From an uncultured Bacteroidota bacterium (GTDB lineage: Bacteria > Bacteroidota > Bacteroidia > Chitinophagales > Chitinophagaceae): DNA of 64,000 nucleotides. The DNA lies in the NCBI GenBank assembly GCA_903882965.1, contig CAIRZD010000279.1, positions 12,387-76,386 on the forward strand, read 5' to 3'. The notes beneath the pieces are model-generated. The model saw only the letters and a program-made list of their open reading frames with translations. It did no database searches and had not been told where the DNA came from. Position numbers and translations under genes: made by a program. Below, piece after piece: positions 7,669 to 62,811 of this stretch. Every line of letters begins with the position of its first letter. The stretch's first letter is position 1.

Positions 7669-8592
7669 CTAGACATTAATAATGATCTTCCCCCGCACAT
7701 GCCCTTCCTCACTCAGCTTATGTGCCGCCTTAATATCTTTAAGCGCAAACTCTTTTTCTATGATCACCTTTAATCTGTTATCATCTACCAGGCCACTTAT
7801 TTCCTGCAGCCGCGCCCCGTTCGAATTCACCATAAAGCTTTTCGCATGTACACTATGTTGTTCGGCCGCTTTCTGGTCCGCACCTACGGTTGATACCAGC
7901 AAGCCGCCCTTTTTAATTACACCCCACGATTTTTTCTGCGTCTCCCCACCTATTGTATCAAACACAAGCGTTACATTTTTCACCAGTGTGCTGAAATCAT
8001 TCTTTGTATAATCGATCACTTTATCTGCGCCCAGTGCCTTTACAAAATCAACATTCTTTGTAGATGTAACTGCGATCACATGCGCCTTGGCAATCCTGGC
8101 AAGCTGCACCGCAAAAACGCCCACGCCACCCGATGCCCCATGTATCAGCACCGTTTGCCCGGAGTGCAGGTTACCCTGTTCAAATAAACCTGCCCATGCC
8201 GTTTGTGCAGCTAATGGCACAGCCGCTGCAAAATTCAATGGTATACTGTCCGGTGCAAACGCCACCTCCGCCGCACGTACCACCATATATTCCGCATACG
8301 ATCCATTGCGCGATGTGTCGGCACGTGCATACACCTTGTCACCTGCTGCAAAACGTGTCACAACAGCCCCAACCGATTCTATCACACCCGAAACATCCCA
8401 TCCCAGTATAAAAGGAAAATGGATTTTCAACCCCTCCTTCATATGCCCCTCCCTTATTTTCCAGTCCACAGGGTTTACACTGGCAGCTGTTATTTTTATC
8501 AACACTTCGTCCGCACCTGCTACTGGCATTGGTGCATCTTCATAAATGAGCGTTTCTAAACCGCCGTATTTATGGATCCTTACTGCTTTCAT
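7669..8592 (-). CDS. NADP-dependent oxidoreductase (MDR/quinone oxidoreductase family)
   Basis: AASVNPVDWKIREG, ILGWDVSGV, VLIHGASGGVGVFAVQLA, GHVRGKIII. Confidence 0.93.
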   Translation of the reverse strand: MKAVRIHKYGGLETLIYEDAPMPVAGADEVLIKITAASVNPVDWKIREGHMKEGLKIHFPFILGWDVSGVIESVGAVVTRFAAGDKVYARADTSRNGSYAEYMVVRAAEVAFAPDSIPLNFAAAVPLAAQTAWAGLFEQGNLHSGQTVLIHGASGGVGVFAVQLARIAKAHVIAVTSTKNVDFVKALGADKVIDYTKNDFSTLVKNVTLVFDTIGGETQKKSWGVIKKGGLLVSTVGADQKAAEQHSVHAKSFMVNSNGARLQEISGLVDDNRLKVIIEKEFALKDIKAAHKLSEEGHVRGKIIINV

Positions 8593-8679
8593 TGCACATA
8601 AATTTAATTCCGAAAAAACGATTTATCATTCTTGCACTTTGCAAACTCTTACCAGCATCATTAAAAAACATTACCCCCT

Positions 8680-8844
8680 TTATTTCCCGCCTATTTTAGC
8701 GATAATAAATATTATGAGGCCAATCACTGCAACTACAATAAAAATACCAACACCAACCCCGGCTTTAAAAATTCCTTCAACCAATTGGCAACTGCTCAGG
8801 GAAAACAGAATGCATAGCAACATAAACAATGATAGCTTTTTCAT
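8680..8844 (-). CDS. 54-aa lipoprotein with a C-terminal TM helix (absent from the ORF track)
   Basis: Hand translation: MKKLSLFMLLCILFSLSSC QLVEGIFKAGVGVGIFIVVAVIGLIIFIIAKIGGK*; lipobox LSSC. Confidence 0.85.
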   Translation of the reverse strand: MKKLSLFMLLCILFSLSSCQLVEGIFKAGVGVGIFIVVAVIGLIIFIIAKIGGK

Positions 8845-8962
8845 AAAATCGTTTTTATTATGAATAAATGATAATTCTCTATCCGCAATAAAAATAGTGC
8901 CACTATATTTCCTTCACTCTTTGTTTACTCCAAAACATTCAACTCCAGATCAACTCTTTTAA

Positions 8963-54823: not shown

Positions 54824-55279
54824 TGAATTTTTATTAAAGATAACAGGCAATATTAGGGCTTCTTACTCAATAAACTTTGCTAAAATAATTAAGGCTGCTT
54901 TTCGGTTTAAAGTTTATACAGCCATGTATATATACTTTCGACACCGTATGTAAATGCTTATAGGTGATAAAATCAGCAGGAAAAACAACTCTTGGTTTAT
55001 ATACTGTTTTACAGAAAAAAATAATCAGGAATTTCTCACATTGCCACCATTTCTTTCGTCATACTATTGGCGCAAACTTATTGTTTAGAAAATAATTTAG
55101 CCACTTTTAACTTCGGGTTAGAATTAATTGCATCATTAATAATGATGCTTTTCGTGTTTTATAATATGTTGTTTTACAGCTACTTAGTAATAATTTTTCA
55201 CAAAAATAACCCAACTATTTACCACATAACAATGTCTTTTATGGTAACCAAAACTATTTTTCACTCAAAAAAAGGACTT

Positions 55280-57115
55280 ATGAAAAACAAACTACTATTT
55301 TCAACGATTTTTATTGTCTTGCTCTCCGCTTTCAGAACGGAGAAGGCAAACGCCCAGGTCACAGGAGTCACCGTTTCCGTTACCGACTCTGTATACACCT
55401 ATTGTACATTACCCAACCCCGCCCAGGTTCTTGTATCGGGAACGCTCACCGGCACCATAACCGCAACAAATGATACGGTATTCCTGTACGTCAATTTCGG
55501 TGATGGCTCTGATACTTCTCTTTATCTGCTTACAACCACAGGCACTTTTGTGTATTGGGGCACCTACTTTAATCATACCTACACACTGCCCGGCACATAT
55601 GCTTCCTATGCAGTGGCCACCGTTTCCGGCGGGTTAACAGGCAGCGGCACTGCTTTTCCGCTCACCTTCTCTAATACCTGCGCCCAGTTGCAAGGCAAGC
55701 TGTACATTGATGCCAACACTAATTGTACACCTGATGCAGGCGAAGCCGGAGTAGCTTATGTGCCGGTTTGGCTCGTTAATGCCGCAACACCCACCGATAC
55801 AGTGTGGGCTACATTTACCGACGATACCGGTTACTATGCCATAGACCTCCTGCCCGGCACTTATACCATCCTTGCCAATAGAGCATCTTACTACGGCTGG
55901 TATTGGTGGGGTGGATACGGCGGCAGCGGTATCACACCTACTACATGCCCTGCAGGCGGGATATATACCCTTACTGCGGTATCAAGTGCCAGCTATACTG
56001 AAAATTTTGCGTTTGCATGCACAACGGCAATGGACACATTTGACGTGAAGGCTACGCTGGGCGCTAATGAATTTGTGCGGGGCGACACAACATGGGTAGA
56101 CGTATGGACCGGTGACTGGTGGTGGTACTGGGATTATACCTGCGCCAGCCTTTCCTCAACCATTACACTTACACTCGATCCGCACCTTCATTATGCAGGT
56201 ATGAATGAGGGACCTGCGCCTACAAGTGTTTCCGGCAGCGTTGTAACCTGGGACTATACTACCGGCTCAGACATTTTTAATTTCTTTGCAGAGGTGCGTG
56301 TGTACTGCGATAGCGCCAGTACTTTAGGCGAATCACTTTGCAATACTGTTTATGCAACACCTACTGCTTTAATAGACCCTGACCTGGCAAATAATACAGA
56401 CACTCACTGTGGCACCGTACTTTCTTCCTGGGACCCGAATGAGTTAGCCGTTTCTCCACAGGGAACAGGCACACCCGGCTATATTAATAATGAAACAGCG
56501 CTTAGCTACAACATCCGCTTCCAGAATACCGGCACAGCCCCGGCCAACAATATTACTGTGAATGATACGCTGAGCACAAACATTGATATGAATACACTGC
56601 ATGTGCTCAAATCATCCGCACCGGTAGAAATGTATGTAGCGGGCAATGTGGTTAAATTCAGGTTCAGCGATATCAACCTGCCCGATAGTGCGGCTAATCC
56701 AAGCGGCAGCATAGGCAACATAGTATTTGGTGTATTACCTAAGCCTGGCCTTGCCGCTGGTACTCCGATACCAAACAGTGCAAGCATTTATTTCGACTAC
56801 AACCAGCCTGTTATTACTAACAGCGTATTGAATACGATAAATAACGCGCTTGGTGTAGTGCATCTCTCCAGTGTGTCAATGACTGCAACTGTTTATCCAA
56901 ATCCTGCAGACAACATTGTGTATGCAAAAACAGATGACAAGTCTGATTTTACAATGACGATGATGGATATGTTGGGTCGCTCGGTTGCTGCTAACAAGAG
57001 TATTTCAGGGAGTGCTGTTGTAAATACACAAAGCTTGCCCACAGGGATATATATTGTAACGCTTACAAACAGCACAGGAAAAGTACTAACAACGAAAGTT
57101 ACCATAGAGCACTAG
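55280..57115 (+). CDS. T9SS type-A CTD secreted surface protein with PKD-like, SdrD-B-like and C-terminal Ig/FN3-like domains
   Basis: NFGDGS, GKLYIDANTNC..DAGE, SSWDPNELAV, YNIRFQNTGTAPA, IYFDYNQPVITN, VYPNPA...GIYIV. Confidence 0.88.
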   Translation: MKNKLLFSTIFIVLLSAFRTEKANAQVTGVTVSVTDSVYTYCTLPNPAQVLVSGTLTGTITATNDTVFLYVNFGDGSDTSLYLLTTTGTFVYWGTYFNHTYTLPGTYASYAVATVSGGLTGSGTAFPLTFSNTCAQLQGKLYIDANTNCTPDAGEAGVAYVPVWLVNAATPTDTVWATFTDDTGYYAIDLLPGTYTILANRASYYGWYWWGGYGGSGITPTTCPAGGIYTLTAVSSASYTENFAFACTTAMDTFDVKATLGANEFVRGDTTWVDVWTGDWWWYWDYTCASLSSTITLTLDPHLHYAGMNEGPAPTSVSGSVVTWDYTTGSDIFNFFAEVRVYCDSASTLGESLCNTVYATPTALIDPDLANNTDTHCGTVLSSWDPNELAVSPQGTGTPGYINNETALSYNIRFQNTGTAPANNITVNDTLSTNIDMNTLHVLKSSAPVEMYVAGNVVKFRFSDINLPDSAANPSGSIGNIVFGVLPKPGLAAGTPIPNSASIYFDYNQPVITNSVLNTINNALGVVHLSSVSMTATVYPNPADNIVYAKTDDKSDFTMTMMDMLGRSVAANKSISGSAVVNTQSLPTGIYIVTLTNSTGKVLTTKVTIEH

Positions 57116-57137
57116 TCATACATAATAGTGCAGCAAT

Positions 57138-57170
57138 AAAAAAACGGGAGTGTGCGCTCCCGTTTTTTTT
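57138..57170. terminator. Bidirectional terminator
   Basis: AAAAAAACGGGAG-TGTGCG-CTCCCGTTTTTTT. Confidence 0.85.
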
Positions 57171-57189
57171 ATTGGTAAAAAGTTGAAAC

Positions 57190-58149
57190 TTATTTTTTCC
57201 TGCTGATGGCATTTTGTGCAGCAGCTACAATATGTTCTTTCGTAAGGCCATATTTGTCCAGCAACTGTTTTGGTGTACCACTTTCTCCAAACGTATCCAT
57301 CACCGCTACATACTCATGAGGCACAGGGCATGTGCGCGAAGCCACATTAGCTATACTGTCGCCAAGGCCGCCATTTATCTGGTGTTCTTCGGCAGTAACA
57401 ATACAACGTGTTTTGCTGATAGATTTTATTACTGCCGCTTCATCCAGCGGTTTTATAGTATGGATATTTATCAGTTCTACCGAGACGCCTTTTTCTGCAA
57501 GAATTTTAGCAGCTTCCACAGCAAGCCATACCATATGCCCGCAGGCAAAGATGGTAACATCTGTACCCTCGGCAAGTACCTGCGCTTTGCCTATTTCAAA
57601 TTTCTGGTCTTCAGCCGTAAAGTTTGGCCACTTCGGTCTTCCGAAACGCAGGTACACAGGTCCCTGGTATTCTGCGATAGCAATTGTTGCAGCCTTGGTC
57701 TGGTTATAATCACATGGCACTATAACGGTCATGCCCGGCAGCATTTTCATCATACCTATATCTTCCAGCACCTGGTGTGTAGCACCATCTTCACCCAGCG
57801 TAAGTCCGGCATGCGATGCGCATATCTTCACATTTTTGCCGCTATACGCTACCGACTGGCGTATCTGGTCATATACGCGCGATGTTGAGAAGTTGGCGAA
57901 CGTAGTTGTAAAAGGGATCTTGCCGCCAATCGTCAGCCCTGCACCTACCCCTATCATATTTGCCTCAGCAATACCGCATTGTATAAAGCGGTCGGGAAAT
58001 TCTTTTATGAATGCATTCAGCTTCAGAGAGCCGGCAAGGTCGGCAGTAAGTGCAACAACATTAGGGTTGCGGCGCCCTGCTTCCAGTATGCCATCACCAA
58101 AACCCCCACGGGTTTCTTTCTCGTTTAATATCTGTATATCGTTTAACAT
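57190..58149 (-). CDS. Transketolase, C-terminal (pyrimidine-binding) subunit
   Basis: GIAEANMIG, GEDGATHQ, GPVYLRFGR, IKPLD, EEHQINGGLG. Confidence 0.95.
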   Translation of the reverse strand: MLNDIQILNEKETRGGFGDGILEAGRRNPNVVALTADLAGSLKLNAFIKEFPDRFIQCGIAEANMIGVGAGLTIGGKIPFTTTFANFSTSRVYDQIRQSVAYSGKNVKICASHAGLTLGEDGATHQVLEDIGMMKMLPGMTVIVPCDYNQTKAATIAIAEYQGPVYLRFGRPKWPNFTAEDQKFEIGKAQVLAEGTDVTIFACGHMVWLAVEAAKILAEKGVSVELINIHTIKPLDEAAVIKSISKTRCIVTAEEHQINGGLGDSIANVASRTCPVPHEYVAVMDTFGESGTPKQLLDKYGLTKEHIVAAAQNAISRKK

Positions 58150-58207
58150 GTAGTGGATATGTGCGGCAAAAATACACTTTTAGCTTTCACTTTCGAATTT
58201 TCACTTT

Positions 58208-58546
58208 TTACTTTGTCAACACATATCCCCAATCTTTCAACCAGGCAATGACTTTTTCACGATAGTCGCCTTGTATAATAATAAAACCATCTTTTACACT
58301 GCCGCCGGCACCGCACTTTGTTTTTAACTGCTTGCCAAGGGCTTCCATATCCTCAGTTGTGCCTGTAAAGCCATCTACGAGCGTCACCACCTTGCCTGCT
58401 CTTTGCTTTGTATCCAGTTTCACACGGAGCTTTTGCTTGTCTTTAGGCAGGGTTTCCATGTTTTCCGGTTCGGGGAAGTCATTAAAAAAATCCTTATTGG
58501 TAGAGTATGCCAGCCCATCTGGGCGGGATGTGTGTTTTTTTGACAT
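58208..58546 (-). CDS. SUI1/YciH family translation factor
   Basis: RAGKVVTLVDGF, LGKQLKTKCGAGGSVKDG.IIIQGD. Confidence 0.95.
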   Translation of the reverse strand: MSKKHTSRPDGLAYSTNKDFFNDFPEPENMETLPKDKQKLRVKLDTKQRAGKVVTLVDGFTGTTEDMEALGKQLKTKCGAGGSVKDGFIIIQGDYREKVIAWLKDWGYVLTK

Positions 58547-58642
58547 AAAAGATATTTTCAAGACGCAAAATTAGTATTTAGTACTCATAGAGTACTTGCA
58601 ATGCAATAAGTTTTATATTTGCTATTACCTTAATCTATTATT

Positions 58643-60265
58643 ATGATAAAGCCAGGCAATAAAATAGAACCCGTTAAAATAAAAAGCTTTAAATATCTAA
58701 TAAACCAAATAAAGAAAAAACATACAGAAACAGAAAGCCCTAAACATGCGTTATTAATTGGGGCGGGGTGCTCGTATAAATGTGGCATACCATTAGGAAG
58801 TCAAATAATAGAGTTATGTAAAATTCATTCTTTTATAGAGAACGAAATAATACAACCCCCTAATTTTTGGGATTTGAACCCTATTAAATTTAATTTTGAA
58901 GAGCTTGAAAAATATTTGAAACAGAAAAAGGAATGGGATAATTTTCAGAAGTACGTAAAAGAAAAAGAATCTTATTTGAAGGAATTAGTAGTTAGGGATA
59001 AAGATATTTATTTAAACAGGATTATTTCGATTTTTGGAGCCTTAGCAGAAGATGAAAAAAAAGGTATATGGAAATCATTTGAAAAAAACATTGTTGCTGA
59101 TTGTAGCTATGGGTTTTGGATGGATCAATACTCGTCAGAAGATCCTTTAACTAGGCAAAAATTAATTGAAGATATCATTGAAGGCAAAAAGCCAAATGGC
59201 GCTTATATATTGCTCTCTTATCTTATTGATCAAGGCATATTTACTAATTTATTAACTACGAACTTTGATGATTTGATTAATGAAGCATTAGTTTATTATA
59301 CAGAATCCAGATGCAGATTCTATGCTGATGATGAAATATCGCAATATATTTCTATTTACAGCAAAAAACCTAATATTATTAAAGTTCATGGTGATTATAG
59401 ATATGCCAATATAAAAAACACAGATAACGAAACTGATAAATTGTCAGGAAATATTAGTATAAAACTAAAGGAATTATTATCTCAATTAGGTTTAATAGTT
59501 GTGGGGTATAACGGTGCAGACCACTCAATAATGAGTGTCCTATATGATTTTAAAAAAAATCAAAAATTCCCCTTCCCAGTTTTATGGTGTGGGCAAAACC
59601 CCAATAATGTTCATTGGCGTGTTGCTCAATTAATAAATAATACTGAAAATAGTTTCTTTGTAGAAATCGAGGGATTTGATCAAATGATTGGGAAATTAGC
59701 CCCTGAATTATTTATTAACGCACCGGAGTTTAACAAGCTAGCAGAAAAAGCAAAGAAAAGAGAGCAAGAGATTGATAAATATTTGCATGACTTTGGAATT
59801 GATTTTAAAAATAGTGCAGCTTCAGTTAAAGAGAAAAAGAACTTGAGGAAGACACTAGACAAATGGCACTACTATAGCAAAGCATATGAGATTAAAGATC
59901 CATTAGAGCAAATGAAATTATATAACAAGGCCATAGAATTAGATAGTTCTTTTGCTGAAGCATACAATGATCGAGCAGATGTATATAGAGAATTGGGAGA
60001 TTACGAAAATGCACTTAAAGACGTTACAGTAGCTATAAAGTTAAACCCCAAGTATCGTTTTTCATATGGTACATTGGCTGAAATATATGGTGAAATGGGA
60101 GAGGAAGAGAAATTTTATGAAGCAATCGAAAATGCATTGAAATTGGGCTATAAGATAGACAATTATTTAAATGATAAACAATATGAAAAAGCCTATAAAT
60201 TATTTAAAGGGCAGGCACGGTTTAAAGAATTATTAGAAAAATATAGAGTTATTAGAAAAATATAA
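58643..60265 (+). CDS. SIR2-like NADase domain with C-terminal TPR repeats; candidate anti-phage protein
   Basis: ALLIGAGCS, LLTTNFDD, IKVHGD, VVGYNGAD; TPR segments LYNKAIELDSSFAEAYNDRADVY and AIKLNPKYRFSYGTLAEIY; AT-rich; own TATATTTG box at about 58614-58621. Confidence 0.85.
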   Translation: MIKPGNKIEPVKIKSFKYLINQIKKKHTETESPKHALLIGAGCSYKCGIPLGSQIIELCKIHSFIENEIIQPPNFWDLNPIKFNFEELEKYLKQKKEWDNFQKYVKEKESYLKELVVRDKDIYLNRIISIFGALAEDEKKGIWKSFEKNIVADCSYGFWMDQYSSEDPLTRQKLIEDIIEGKKPNGAYILLSYLIDQGIFTNLLTTNFDDLINEALVYYTESRCRFYADDEISQYISIYSKKPNIIKVHGDYRYANIKNTDNETDKLSGNISIKLKELLSQLGLIVVGYNGADHSIMSVLYDFKKNQKFPFPVLWCGQNPNNVHWRVAQLINNTENSFFVEIEGFDQMIGKLAPELFINAPEFNKLAEKAKKREQEIDKYLHDFGIDFKNSAASVKEKKNLRKTLDKWHYYSKAYEIKDPLEQMKLYNKAIELDSSFAEAYNDRADVYRELGDYENALKDVTVAIKLNPKYRFSYGTLAEIYGEMGEEEKFYEAIENALKLGYKIDNYLNDKQYEKAYKLFKGQARFKELLEKYRVIRKI

Positions 60266-60330
60266 ACCTAAATCGTAAATCATTACTTTATCCCTTATTC
60301 AACTAATTTAGCACTCAAATTCCTAATTAA

Positions 60331-61029
60331 ATGAACAAAGTAGTTGCAGGCGCAGATGAGGCAGTAAAAGATATCCCTTCAGGCGCCACACTCATGCTCG
60401 GTGGTTTTGGCCTCTGTGGTATACCGGAGAATTGCATTCATGCACTCGTAAAAAAAGGCATCAATAATCTTACCTGTATCTCTAACAATGCAGGTGTCGA
60501 TGATTTTGGTATTGGTCTTATGCTCCAGGGCAGGCAGGTGAAAAAAATGATCGCTTCCTATGTAGGTGAGAATGCTGAGTTCGAAAGACAAATGCTCACC
60601 GGTGAGCTGGAAGTAGAGCTAGTGCCGCAGGGCACACTTGCCACACGTTGCATGGCTACAGGCTATGGCATGCCTGCAGTATTTCTTTTAGCGGGTATAG
60701 GTACAGAAGTGGCCGAAGGCAAAGAGGTGCGCAACTTCAATGGCAAAAATTATTTGCTGGAGCATGCTTTCGATTCAGACTTTGCCATCGTAAAAGCATG
60801 GAAGGGTGATACACAAGGCAACCTTATATTCAAAGGTACTGCGCGCAATTTCAGCCCGCTTATGGCTATGGCCGGCAAAATAACTATTGCAGAGGTAGAG
60901 CATCTGGTTCCCGCAGGAGAGCTTGATCCGAATGCTATCCATGTGCCAGGTATTTATGTACACCGCATATTCCAGGGCGATAAGTATGAAAAGCGTATAG
61001 AGCAAAGAACAGTTAGGAAAAGAAGCTGA
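60331..61029 (+). CDS. scoA: 3-oxoacid CoA-transferase subunit A
   Basis: [43 protein letters not shown]. Confidence 0.93.
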
Positions 61030-61130
61030 TAAACTGATCAGATTGTAAGGCATAAAATATTTACGAAGTAGAATAATAAATTACTTAACACATAAAACAA
61101 GAGGAAGCCCCTTTTAGGGGTTTTGGGGTT

Positions 61131-61787
61131 ATGGCACTTAATAAAGAACAAATAGCGCGCCGTATAGCGCAGGAACTGCAAGATGGCTTTTATGTAAATC
61201 TTGGTATAGGTATTCCCACCCTTGTGGCTAATTATATTCCGCATGGAGTGGACGTTGTATTACAAAGCGAGAACGGATTACTCGGTATGGGCCCATTTCC
61301 CCTCGAAGGTGATGAAGACGCAGACCTTATCAATGCAGGTAAGCAAACCATCACAACAGTTCCCGGCTCTGCTTTCTTCGACAGTGCCATGAGCTTTGGT
61401 ATGATCCGTGCCGGCAAGGTAGACCTCACTGTACTCGGAGCAATGGAGGTTGCAGATAATGGCGATATAGCAAACTGGAAAATACCCGGGAAAATGGTAA
61501 AGGGCATGGGCGGCGCTATGGATCTTGTTGCTGCTGCAAAAAATATTATTGTAGCTATGCAGCACACTAACCCCAAAGGAGAAAGCAAGCTCTTGCCAAA
61601 ATGTTCATTGCCGCTTACTGGTGTGGGCTGTGTAAAAAAAGTGGTATCCGATCTTGGAGTGTTTGACATTACCCCCGATGGTTTCAGATGTATAGAATAT
61701 GCACCGGGAGTTACTATTGATGAAATAAAAGCAAAGACCGCAGGCCGTTTAATTATAGCAGATGATGTAAAGGAGATGATTGTATAA
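61131..61787 (+). CDS. scoB: 3-oxoacid CoA-transferase subunit B
   Basis: VNLGIGIPT, QSENG (active-site Glu), INAGKQ, KGMGGAMDL. Confidence 0.93.
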   Translation: MALNKEQIARRIAQELQDGFYVNLGIGIPTLVANYIPHGVDVVLQSENGLLGMGPFPLEGDEDADLINAGKQTITTVPGSAFFDSAMSFGMIRAGKVDLTVLGAMEVADNGDIANWKIPGKMVKGMGGAMDLVAAAKNIIVAMQHTNPKGESKLLPKCSLPLTGVGCVKKVVSDLGVFDITPDGFRCIEYAPGVTIDEIKAKTAGRLIIADDVKEMIV

Positions 61788-61812
61788 TTTTTATAGTCGT
61801 TAATACTTTTCT

Positions 61813-62811
61813 ATGGAATACAGAAGAATGGGGAAATCAGGATTGCAGCTAAGTGTCCTCTCTTATGGATCGTGGGTTACATTCTCAAAACAGGTAGACG
61901 ATACTGCATCTGATCGGTTGATGGGCCTGGCATACGATAGCGGTATCAATTTCTTCGACAATGCCGAAGGTTATGAAGGTGGCAGGTCGGAAGAAATAAT
62001 GGGCAGAACATTAAAGAACAAAAACTGGGATCGTACCTCTTATTGTATATCCAGCAAAGCTTTCTTCGGCCTGCACGGAAAAGACAACAAACCCAACCAG
62101 GGCGGCCTTAGCCGTAAGCATCTTACCGAGGCGTGCCATGGCGCATTACAACGTTTACAATCAGACTATCTCGACCTGTTCTTCTGCCACCGCCCTGATC
62201 CCGAAACACCAATGGACGAGATAGTATGGACCATGAACATACTTCTGCAGCAAGGCAAAATACTTTACTGGGGTACCAGCGAATGGAGTGCCGGTGAAAT
62301 AATGGAAGCACACAAAGTTGCAGATAGGCTCAACCTCATAGGCCCCGCAATGGAACAGCCACAATACAATCTTTTCGAGCGGCAGAAAATGGAAGTTGAT
62401 TATGCGCGTATATTCAACAACGTTGGGATGGGCACCACAATTTGGAGTCCACTTGCATCGGGGCTCCTCACCGGTAAATATAATAACGGGGTGCCCGCGG
62501 GCTCTCGCCTCTCACTCGATAATTATGGCTGGCTCAAAGAACGGACCATGCAGGAAGAAAAAATAAATAAAGTTCGCAAGCTCGAAAAAGTTGCCAAAGA
62601 GCTTAATGCTTCGCTGGCCACATTATCCATTGCCTGGTGCATTCACAATACTAATGTCACTACAGCTATTCTGGGTGCAACCAAAGAAAAGCAACTTACC
62701 GAAAACCTTCAGGCGCTGGATATATACCCTAAACTTACCGCCGGCATTATGAGTGAGATAGAACTCATTATGGATACAAAACCTGCCCGTGCTATTAATA
62801 CCGGCATGTAG
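61813..62811 (+). CDS. Aldo/keto reductase (Kv-beta subunit-like)
   Basis: GINFFDNAEGY, LQSDYLDLFFCHRPD, LYWGTSEWS, WSPLASGLLTGKY. Confidence 0.94.
   Translation: MEYRRMGKSGLQLSVLSYGSWVTFSKQVDDTASDRLMGLAYDSGINFFDNAEGYEGGRSEEIMGRTLKNKNWDRTSYCISSKAFFGLHGKDNKPNQGGLSRKHLTEACHGALQRLQSDYLDLFFCHRPDPETPMDEIVWTMNILLQQGKILYWGTSEWSAGEIMEAHKVADRLNLIGPAMEQPQYNLFERQKMEVDYARIFNNVGMGTTIWSPLASGLLTGKYNNGVPAGSRLSLDNYGWLKERTMQEEKINKVRKLEKVAKELNASLATLSIAWCIHNTNVTTAILGATKEKQLTENLQALDIYPKLTAGIMSEIELIMDTKPARAINTGM

Follow-up and report, generated by a model that had tools for sequence, protein, structure and literature searches.

The SIR2-TPR gene and its product

We analysed a 64,000-nucleotide stretch of DNA (the window) from an uncultured Chitinophagaceae bacterium of the phylum Bacteroidota (contig CAIRZD010000279.1, positions 12,387 to 76,386), which carries a stand-alone gene coding for an N-terminal SIR2 domain joined to C-terminal tetratricopeptide repeats (TPRs), a candidate for a compact immune protein that depletes nicotinamide adenine dinucleotide (NAD+). 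The open reading frame (ORF) of this SIR2-TPR gene lies at 58643-60265, where a preliminary description of the sequence had placed it, and the four sirtuin motifs named there were read from the translation as GAGCS at residues 40-44, TTNFD at 205-209, KVHG at 247-250 and GYNGAD at 288-293. More than 60 full-length homologues of the protein were found, with 36-58% identity. The gene and the parts of its product are as follows.

58643-60265, forward strand: SIR2-TPR gene, ORF with ATG start, 540 residues; Pfam SIR2_2 and TPR; AlphaFold2 (AF2) predicted local distance difference test (pLDDT) 89
58643-59722, forward strand: SIR2 (SIR2_2/'SIRim') NADase-type domain, residues 1-360; Rossmann core with an alpha-helical insertion at ~52-200 and without a Zn module
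58760-58774, forward strand: GAGCS NAD-binding glycine loop, residues 40-44; G40 and G42 invariant, A41, C43 and S44 at least 90% conserved (44 homologues)
59261-59263, forward strand: predicted catalytic Asn N207 in TTNFDD; invariant in alignment A1, aligns with SPARSA N142
59387-59389, forward strand: predicted catalytic His H249 in KVHGD, followed by the flexible 'catalytic loop' 251-257; invariant, aligns with SPARSA H186
59729-59809, forward strand: linker helix, residues 363-389, from SIR2 to the TPRs (DSSP on the AF2 model)
59825-60157, forward strand: three TPR repeats, residues ~395-505, presumed sensor or ligand-binding module (Pfam, consensus-TPR structures and model helix pairs)
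60176-60262, forward strand: C-terminal capping helices, residues 512-540, with an F..LL..Y end motif (A1 consensus ends F-x-x-L-L-x-x-Y; model helices)

The SIR2 part matched Pfam SIR2_2 (PF13289) with E 9.6e-12 and 45.6 bits against a cut-off of 24.5, and Pfam TPR families covered residues ~405-505 (TPR_17, E 8.7e-10; also TPR_11, TPR_8, TPR_2 and TPR_1), with consensus-TPR structures in the PDB matching the TPR part as well. NCBIfam returned solely partial matches of the TPR type. An AF2 model built from a 44-sequence alignment (A1, with homologues down to 28% identity) reached a mean pLDDT of 89.3 and a predicted template modelling score (pTM) of 0.76. In this model a Rossmann core with a helical insertion is followed by a long linker helix, three helix-pair TPRs (~403-433, 438-467 and 472-500) and two capping helices (512-519 and 525-539); the earlier count of about three TPRs directly after the SIR2 domain is borne out, with the one linker helix in between. 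No NTPase, SLOG, APAZ, Macro or Zn-ribbon domain was found in the protein by Pfam, NCBIfam and PADLOC scans, in agreement with the preliminary description, and no part of the modelled protein is spare for one. The F..LL..Y cap is conserved across the homologues, indicating that the 540-residue protein is not truncated and represents a complete, minimal member of its family.

Affinity and catalytic residues of the SIR2 domain

SIR2 NADases are recurrent immune effectors from bacteria to humans (ThsA, DSR, SPARSA, Avs5 and FAM118/SIRanc), and to our knowledge all those characterised need a partner protein or a large sensor/NTPase region. All PADLOC matches of the SIR2-TPR protein were to SIR2 profiles, the best being the Argonaute-associated SIR2-APAZ profile (Aga_SIR2-PNTD; E 1.8e-44), and coverage of the Aga_SIR2 profiles ended at ~303-309 of 558/1010, corresponding to the SIR2 part only. 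Nine homologues gave the same pattern of a matched SIR2 part and no APAZ. A Foldseek search against the PDB ranked the SPARSA Sir2-APAZ structures first (8y80_E and 8jkz_A; E ~1e-9), followed by DSR2 (E 2e-4) and SIR2-HerA. In a phmmer search against the PDB, 8jkz_A was matched with E 2e-12 and an exact alignment of TTNFDD and K-I-HGD, placing N142 and H186 of GsSir2 on N207 and H249. Both SPARSA residues are needed for NADase activity, and H186 lies on a 'catalytic loop' that is repositioned upon SIR2 tetramerisation (PMC11452484). Seven residues were invariant in the 44-member alignment (G40, G42, N207, D209, H249, G250 and D251). The equivalent of the SPARSA catalytic loop, residues 251-257, is the only segment of the model with a pLDDT below 50, and its predicted disorder would fit an activation that depends on assembly. 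By sequence and fold the domain can be assigned to the clade of immune NADases, within the SIR2_2/'SIRim' superfamily.

A cellular regulatory enzyme, in which SIR2_2 would deacylate or ADP-ribosylate a host protein recruited by the TPRs and play a physiological (stress or metabolic) role rather than one in immunity, is unlikely. TPRs are generic protein-protein adaptors, a point in favour of such an enzyme. However, its nearest relatives by sequence and fold are all NADase defence effectors, and canonical deacylase profiles remained below their cut-offs (PF02146, E 0.013 and 15.9 bits vs. 24; NCBIfam CobB, 15.5 bits vs. 320). Moreover, neither the domain scans nor the model revealed a Zn module in the protein, and canonical deacylases require this Zn-binding module (PMC12700824).

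A single-gene insertion at a variable junction

The preliminary description had also placed the gene between two housekeeping loci, and this was found to be the case, with SUI1/yciH on one side and scoA/scoB on the other.

58208-58546, reverse strand: left flank, SUI1/YciH-type translation initiation factor gene (Pfam SUI1, E 3e-19); found in 25 of 26 relatives
58548-60281, forward strand: 1.73-kb insertion relative to congeners; SIR2-TPR gene with 95 bp upstream and ~16 bp downstream, insert GC 29.8%
58614-58621, forward strand: TAnnTTTG Bacteroidota-type -7 promoter-like box, TATATTTG, 22 nt before the ATG
60331-61029, forward strand: right flank, scoA (CoA transferase subunit A; Pfam CoA_trans); congener identity 83-96%
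61131-61787, downstream of scoA: scoB (Pfam CoA_trans; scoA and scoB E 1e-72 and 2e-47)

The SUI1 alignments of relatives begin at residue 5-6, so the likely start of this gene is the ATG at 58546 and not the TTG at 58561. Comparison with six congeneric SUI1/scoA junctions (L011-L016, from G004, G007, G003, G009, G015 and G013) showed that homology ends at ~58547 and restarts at ~60282-60304. Two of these congeners, G007 and G004, have an empty site in which the flanks are just ~60-70 bp apart, and several congeners have SUI1 and scoA side by side in divergent orientation. The insert consists of the SIR2-TPR gene with its own upstream region and contains no other gene. Terminal repeats, a target-site duplication, insertion sequences, an integrase or a tRNA were not found at its ends, and an Rfam scan of 57000-62000 (E <= 0.1) returned no RNA family.

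The gene has a GC content of 30.1% (GC at third codon positions 25.3%) compared to 41.2% for the whole window, 46.5% for scoA, 44.9% for scoB, 43.2% for SUI1 and 46.9% for the gene for a transketolase C-terminal part. The contrast in composition drawn earlier therefore stands (30.1% vs. 43-47%), but the figures then given for the gene (22-25%) and for scoA (~40%) were both too low. Likewise, the TAnnTTTG box ascribed to the gene is present but not distinctive: the motif occurs in the window at chance frequency (71 found, 78 expected from shuffles), making this box suggestive only, and it was rejected as evidence of a promoter. Judged by its presence and absence at the SUI1/yciH-scoA junction, the gene is an insertion of low GC that occurs sporadically, the site being empty in some congeners.

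The contents of this junction differ elsewhere in the genus. One species has 272 bp of ~25-nt tandem repeats (AAATTCAAAAGTAAAAACACTACTT), one congener a 68-residue ORF, and two congeners an ORF of 231-232 residues with an acyl-carrier-protein-like N-terminus (MGLDSVELLVEIE...). This small spot is variable in the genus, where at least four alternatives occupy it.

Beyond the assembly, the locus (58300-60600) was matched solely in metagenome contigs, with 100% identity in lake water, the probable source, and fragments in permafrost of other studies, and no empty-site joints were seen in the matching lake-water and permafrost contigs. The strain that bears the gene seems to occur widely in cold freshwater and in soil. 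A locus that is 100% identical in lake-water and permafrost contigs points to stable maintenance in the species, and this and the position between housekeeping genes are features that a resident regulatory enzyme would also have.

Further upstream in the window, 55067-57115 (forward strand) codes for a 682-residue protein secreted by the type IX secretion system (T9SS), with DUF7619 and Por_Secre_tail, and with a GC content of 48-53% compared to 41% for the window; its listed TTG start probably over-extends the N-terminus.

Divergence of the TPR tail

The closest homologue (P0001, 58% identity) occupies the same SUI1/scoA junction in two metagenome contigs (L017 and L018) and in a contig of a metagenome-assembled genome (MAG; L032). 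SUI1 and ScoA proteins of L017 and L018 are 86% identical to those of the window, and the P0001 gene again has a GC content of 30%. Between the same-site alleles, the nonsynonymous distance (dN), the one rate that could be compared, was 0.09 for SUI1, 0.11 for scoA, 0.13 for the SIR2 core, 0.39 for the helical insertion and 0.47 for the TPR tail. The tail is the fastest-evolving part of the protein, its divergence being 3-4 times that of the SIR2 core (dN 0.47 vs. 0.13). These alleles are compatible with two histories, namely an old insertion that has been lost repeatedly and carries a fast-evolving sensor, or more than one capture at this spot from a gene pool of low GC.

Within the family, identity was 49-69% in the SIR2 part compared to 28-44% in the TPR part. 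The number of TPRs varies (proteins of 540-1003 residues), whereas both the N-terminal module and the cap at the C-terminus are conserved. A sister family of ~850 residues has the same SIR2 module (37-41% identity, residues 1-400), with the TPRs replaced by a C-terminal region of ~450 residues that matched nothing in Pfam or PADLOC and may be an undescribed sensor domain. Its members include P0072, P0076, P0081 (Polaribacter) and P0091 (Mariniphaga), at loci L048, L050-L052, L054, L060 and L066. Such a combination, a constant effector with exchangeable C-terminal modules that evolve rapidly, is typical of immune sensor-effector proteins.

Genomic neighbourhoods

Neighbours were clustered over 293 ORFs from 23 full-length loci (approximately 8 kb to either side). 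No conserved partner was found, as had been claimed for the window, with no neighbour family occurring in more than five of the 23 loci. A T9SS subtilase recurred most, together with a MacB/FtsX permease; the remainder reflected local synteny among Pinibacter genomes. Piwi (PF02171) was not found in the 95%-complete genome, the control genomes being positive; a SPARSA subunit acting in trans was rejected, the genome being without Piwi.

These data bear on the possibility that the protein is the effector half of a split system, with TPRs that would dock on a separate sensor or receive its signal (sent by a TIR protein, the arrangement in Thoeris, or by a STAND/Avs-like NTPase) and a gene that would be inert alone. 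We judge this to be rather improbable. Most characterised SIR2 effectors do require a partner, namely ThsB, HerA or pAgo (PMC9503650, PMC11452484), a two-gene TIR/TPR system is reported in a preprint (10.1101/2023.05.26.542521), and a ThsB-like TIR gene lies ~1.1 kb upstream of one homologue. Set against this, the recurrent neighbours are unrelated paralogous families, none of them in more than five of the 23 loci, the insertion at the window locus carried this one gene only, the protein has no SLOG, Macro or other signal-binding domain, and the genome lacks Piwi.

The TIR gene codes for 127 residues at 8537-8920 of a bioreactor metagenome contig from the European Nucleotide Archive (L027), on the same strand as the SIR2-TPR homologue P0007. 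The two may form a Thoeris-like pairing, at this one locus only. The same contig encodes a 1250-residue leucine-rich repeat protein near P0007 (1997-5749). On another contig (L019, 1357-5169), a defence-like trio of HATPase_c_3, PP_RS20740 and DNA_methylase lies ~5-8 kb upstream of the homologue P0006.

Distribution of the family

The SIR2-TPR gene was absent from all 24 other species of the genus, one of which has just a distant SIR2 protein of 1069 residues. Within the family Chitinophagaceae, two of 300 other genomes carried the gene, both from the genus g33 (Pinibacter-like), and one of 400 other genomes from the phylum was matched, in the SIR2 part only. A scan of 185,579 species representatives with two peptide patterns, a method of limited sensitivity, recovered ~30 full-length loci from several phyla. 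The carriers included Chitinophagaceae, Pinibacter, Spirosoma, Cytophagales, Flavobacteriaceae, Bacteroidales, several Ignavibacteria, a Smithella, a Spirochaetota MAG and others. In 12 of 22 species loci the GC content of the gene was more than 3 points under that of its flanks (median -3.6; largest deficit -15).

An exhaustive HMMER search of 1.84 billion cluster representatives returned 361 matches at E <= 1e-30. Among the best 150 of these, as judged from the listed match ranges, 43 clusters matched collinearly from the N-terminal end on into the TPRs and a further 27 did so with a shorter N-terminal part, giving at least 70 clusters (50% identity) with the SIR2-TPR architecture. Homologues were annotated at source as 'tetratricopeptide repeat protein' or not at all; with this annotation the family has been missed by defence-system annotators. 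This extremely patchy occurrence (no other species of the genus and <1% of the other family genomes), crossing phyla and including a homologue borne by a provirus, speaks against the regulatory enzyme.

Pinibacter aurantiacus and Chitinophagaceae bacterium 26-R-25 retain an intact gene, which lies in synteny next to genes for thiamine biosynthesis. The copy in their sister species Pinibacter soli (L056, NZ_JASBRG010000007.1; G305:C11:95097-96554) has an in-frame TAG, is annotated as a 473-residue fragment (P0060) and is probably a pseudogene.

Carriage on mobile elements

A tblastn search against phage records identified a collinear SIR2_2 and TPR protein of 555 residues in Haloferax virus Halfgib1, an integrating pleolipovirus. 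This protein (HfxHg1_085, annotated 'tetratricopeptide repeat protein') has 33% identity over residues 137-466 and displays the GAG loop, NFDD, KLHGDY and GY-G-D-SIM motifs. It is encoded in an accessory region beside an integrase, a winged helix-turn-helix (wHTH) regulator and Dcm, with a gene GC of 38% compared to 54% for the rest. It differs from the window protein in being encoded by an archaeal provirus and in the shorter helical insertion of its SIR2 domain. Iyer et al. (2022; PMC9503650) noted the Halfgib1 protein as the sole archaeal-virus sirtuin, with no further analysis. A related SIR2_2 protein of 612 residues was found in the 186-like prophage Vibrio phage 10N.286.45.B12_PE001 (PQ189330.1, L029:4749-6587), where its gene lies between cI and int. 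The cI/int interval is a classic site of prophage-borne defence genes. A few plasmids bear relatives with SIR2 only.

Such carriage could also mean that the gene is a weapon between mobile elements or an addiction module, chiefly in the service of such elements and acting in superinfection exclusion by proviruses or post-segregational killing, with the chromosomal copies as remnants of elements. We regard this as quite improbable. The Halfgib1 copy near int, wHTH and Dcm, the Vibrio gene between cI and int, the GC below that of the host in many loci and the variability of the SUI1/scoA junction, with its four or more alternative contents in the genus, would all be accommodated. However, no integrase, transposase, att-like repeat or other mobile gene lies in or beside the 1.73-kb insert, no antitoxin-like small ORF lies inside it, and the mechanism overlaps with that of a triggered NADase and does not replace it.

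Proposed function

We put at roughly 60% the probability that SIR2-TPR forms a single-gene system for abortive infection, in which the TPRs are the sensor of an NADase. The observations behind this estimate are the domain architecture, a SIR2 domain of the immune clade with conserved catalytic residues, the lack of a partner gene and an accessory, horizontally mobile distribution that includes a provirus. In the proposed mechanism, the SIR2_2 domain would be an NAD+ glycohydrolase kept inactive in uninfected cells, and the TPR array would bind a protein or peptide that arises, or is altered, when a phage or other mobile element infects the cell. Ligand binding would alter the oligomeric state, and the altered assembly would order the catalytic loop after H249 and align it with N207. 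NAD+ would then be hydrolysed, leaving an infected cell that no longer supports replication (abortive infection).

More tentatively, at somewhat less than an even chance, SIR2-TPR may represent a distinct, minimal single-gene family of immune receptors of bacteria and archaeal proviruses, in which a SIR2 module of the prokaryotic Argonaute (pAgo) clade traded APAZ/pAgo, which senses nucleic acids, for TPRs (just three in the smallest case) that directly recognise a peptide of the virus or a guarded one of the host, and ligand-induced self-assembly free of an NTPase switches on NAD+ hydrolysis. The defence role suggested in the preliminary description is plausible and partly supported. The computational checks proposed there all spoke for it, with the sporadic insertion, the absence of a full match to any named system, the predicted immune SIR2 clade, the lack of a partner and the provirus homologue counting in its favour as independent comparative evidence.

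Several points weigh against this interpretation. For all family members, that the protein cleaves NAD+, responds to a trigger, is activated by oligomerisation and protects the cell is what we infer. Three TPRs offer a small surface for the specific recognition of a phage protein, and positive selection on the TPRs would be masked by synonymous distances (dS) that are saturated in the gene as well as in either flank (values >2, or undefined), leaving dN alone comparable. The tetramer-interface residue Y168 of SPARSA is not conserved (it aligns with I232), meaning that any oligomer would form via a different interface. The window gene lies among housekeeping genes and not in a defence island, and the defence-like or toxin-antitoxin genes seen within 10 kb of some homologues (AbiEi/AbiEii, RES-Xre, a ThsB-like TIR, an AAA_15/21 ATPase and the HATPase and methylase trio) would favour defence but are anecdotal. 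Neither PADLOC nor NCBIfam has a name for the family.

A second recurrent site also belongs here. In three organisms (L019, L024 and L027; gene at 10001-~12000 in each), the gene is convergent with BPL_LplA_LipB and next to RsfS-FtsH, with FtsH proteins 72-81% identical and SIR2-TPR copies 43-51% identical, and its GC content is host-like in two of the three. This pattern suggests vertical retention of a long-held cellular gene. It is what a regulatory enzyme resident in three diverged organisms, syntenic and with ameliorated GC, would display, and it makes the description 'recently acquired island gene' untrue of the family as a whole. Conservation by vertical descent, with synteny and normal GC, which had been named as contrary to a defence role, does not hold in the source genus and family but appears to hold in the BPL/RsfS/FtsH lineage.

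If the more tentative receptor interpretation is true, the protein would, with 540 residues, be one of the smallest complete NADase systems that unite sensor and effector, and would offer a tractable model for the gating of sirtuin effectors by repeat sensors. A SIR2 protein of this size with three TPRs would be a minimal system in which to study how a sirtuin active site is controlled by a repeat sensor. It would further mean that the SIR2 module known from pAgo systems spreads without Argonautes, and that a defence or exclusion gene is common to Bacteroidota, several other phyla and a haloarchaeal provirus.

Comparison with known systems

No named system was matched in full, with PADLOC matching only the SIR2 part of SIR2-APAZ and of PDC-S65. 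PDC-S65 is, like SIR2-TPR, a single-gene SIR2 candidate of similar length (profiles of 503-592 residues; SIR2 part E 3.2e-23). However, just positions 120-288 of the 592 in the profile were matched, the C-terminal part was unmatched and the score was under those of the pAgo-associated SIR2 profiles. SIR2_2 proteins with TPRs appear as labels in a sirtuin tree (PMC12700824), and our literature search found no paper naming or testing a SIR2-TPR, TPR-SIR2 or sirtuin-TPR system. A preprint on modularity (10.64898/2025.12.08.692795) excluded single-gene systems and leaves TPR unmentioned.

The nearest SIR2 domain by profile and fold is that of SPARSA from G. sulfurreducens (8JKZ/8Y80), with which the window protein shares TTNFDD, K-[IV]-HGD and a flexible loop after the His. 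In contrast to SPARSA, the protein has no APAZ, its C-terminus being a TPR array, and no pAgo is adjacent or encoded in the genome. The sensor of SPARSA is a guide-RNA-loaded Argonaute, whereas that of the window protein is presumed to be the TPR array. Unlike ThsA of Thoeris, the window protein has no SLOG or Macro domain and no ThsA profile match, and the locus has no TIR gene. SIR2-HerA (Nezha) differs by its HerA gene, which is not adjacent at the window locus, and no HerA-type profile was matched in PADLOC.

Repeat sensors combined with SIR2 are known from larger proteins. Avs5/SIR2-STAND and eukaryotic SIRim-NLRs are reported to have an N-terminal SIR2 and a C-terminal sensor of TPR-type repeats (PMC11897194, PMC12931631, 10.1101/2024.09.18.613514). 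In Avs5 a central STAND/NOD NTPase drives oligomerisation, whereas the window protein has the single helix 363-389 in this position and no P-loop family in Pfam or NCBIfam. Kaur et al. (2021; PMC8195603) described stand-alone effector-TPR-GreA/B-C-PIN proteins with few conserved neighbours and a swappable N-terminal effector, SIR2 being among 13. The window protein differs in stopping at residue 540 after the TPR cap, without GreA/B-C and without PIN.

In its presumed mode of working, the protein would be nearest to DSR2 of B. subtilis, with SIR2 and a repeat sensor in a single polypeptide. DSR2 is described as one chain in which a SIR2 NADase at the N-terminus is followed by a C-terminal sensor of alpha-solenoid repeats that binds the phage tail tube directly, and it causes abortive infection by NAD+ depletion (PMC11850899, PMC10981675). 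The two differ in size and build, DSR2 being a tetramer of ~1000-residue chains with MID and a HEAT-like C-terminal domain, compared to 540 residues and three TPRs here. No DSR1 or DSR2 profile was matched in PADLOC even at E <= 1, the likeness in fold is remote (E 2e-4), and the two SIR2 domains are of different subclades. The window protein misses defining features of every named system compared. New combinations of the SIR2 domain are expected by specialists, and the novelty lies in the minimal sensor arrangement on an immune-type SIR2 NADase.

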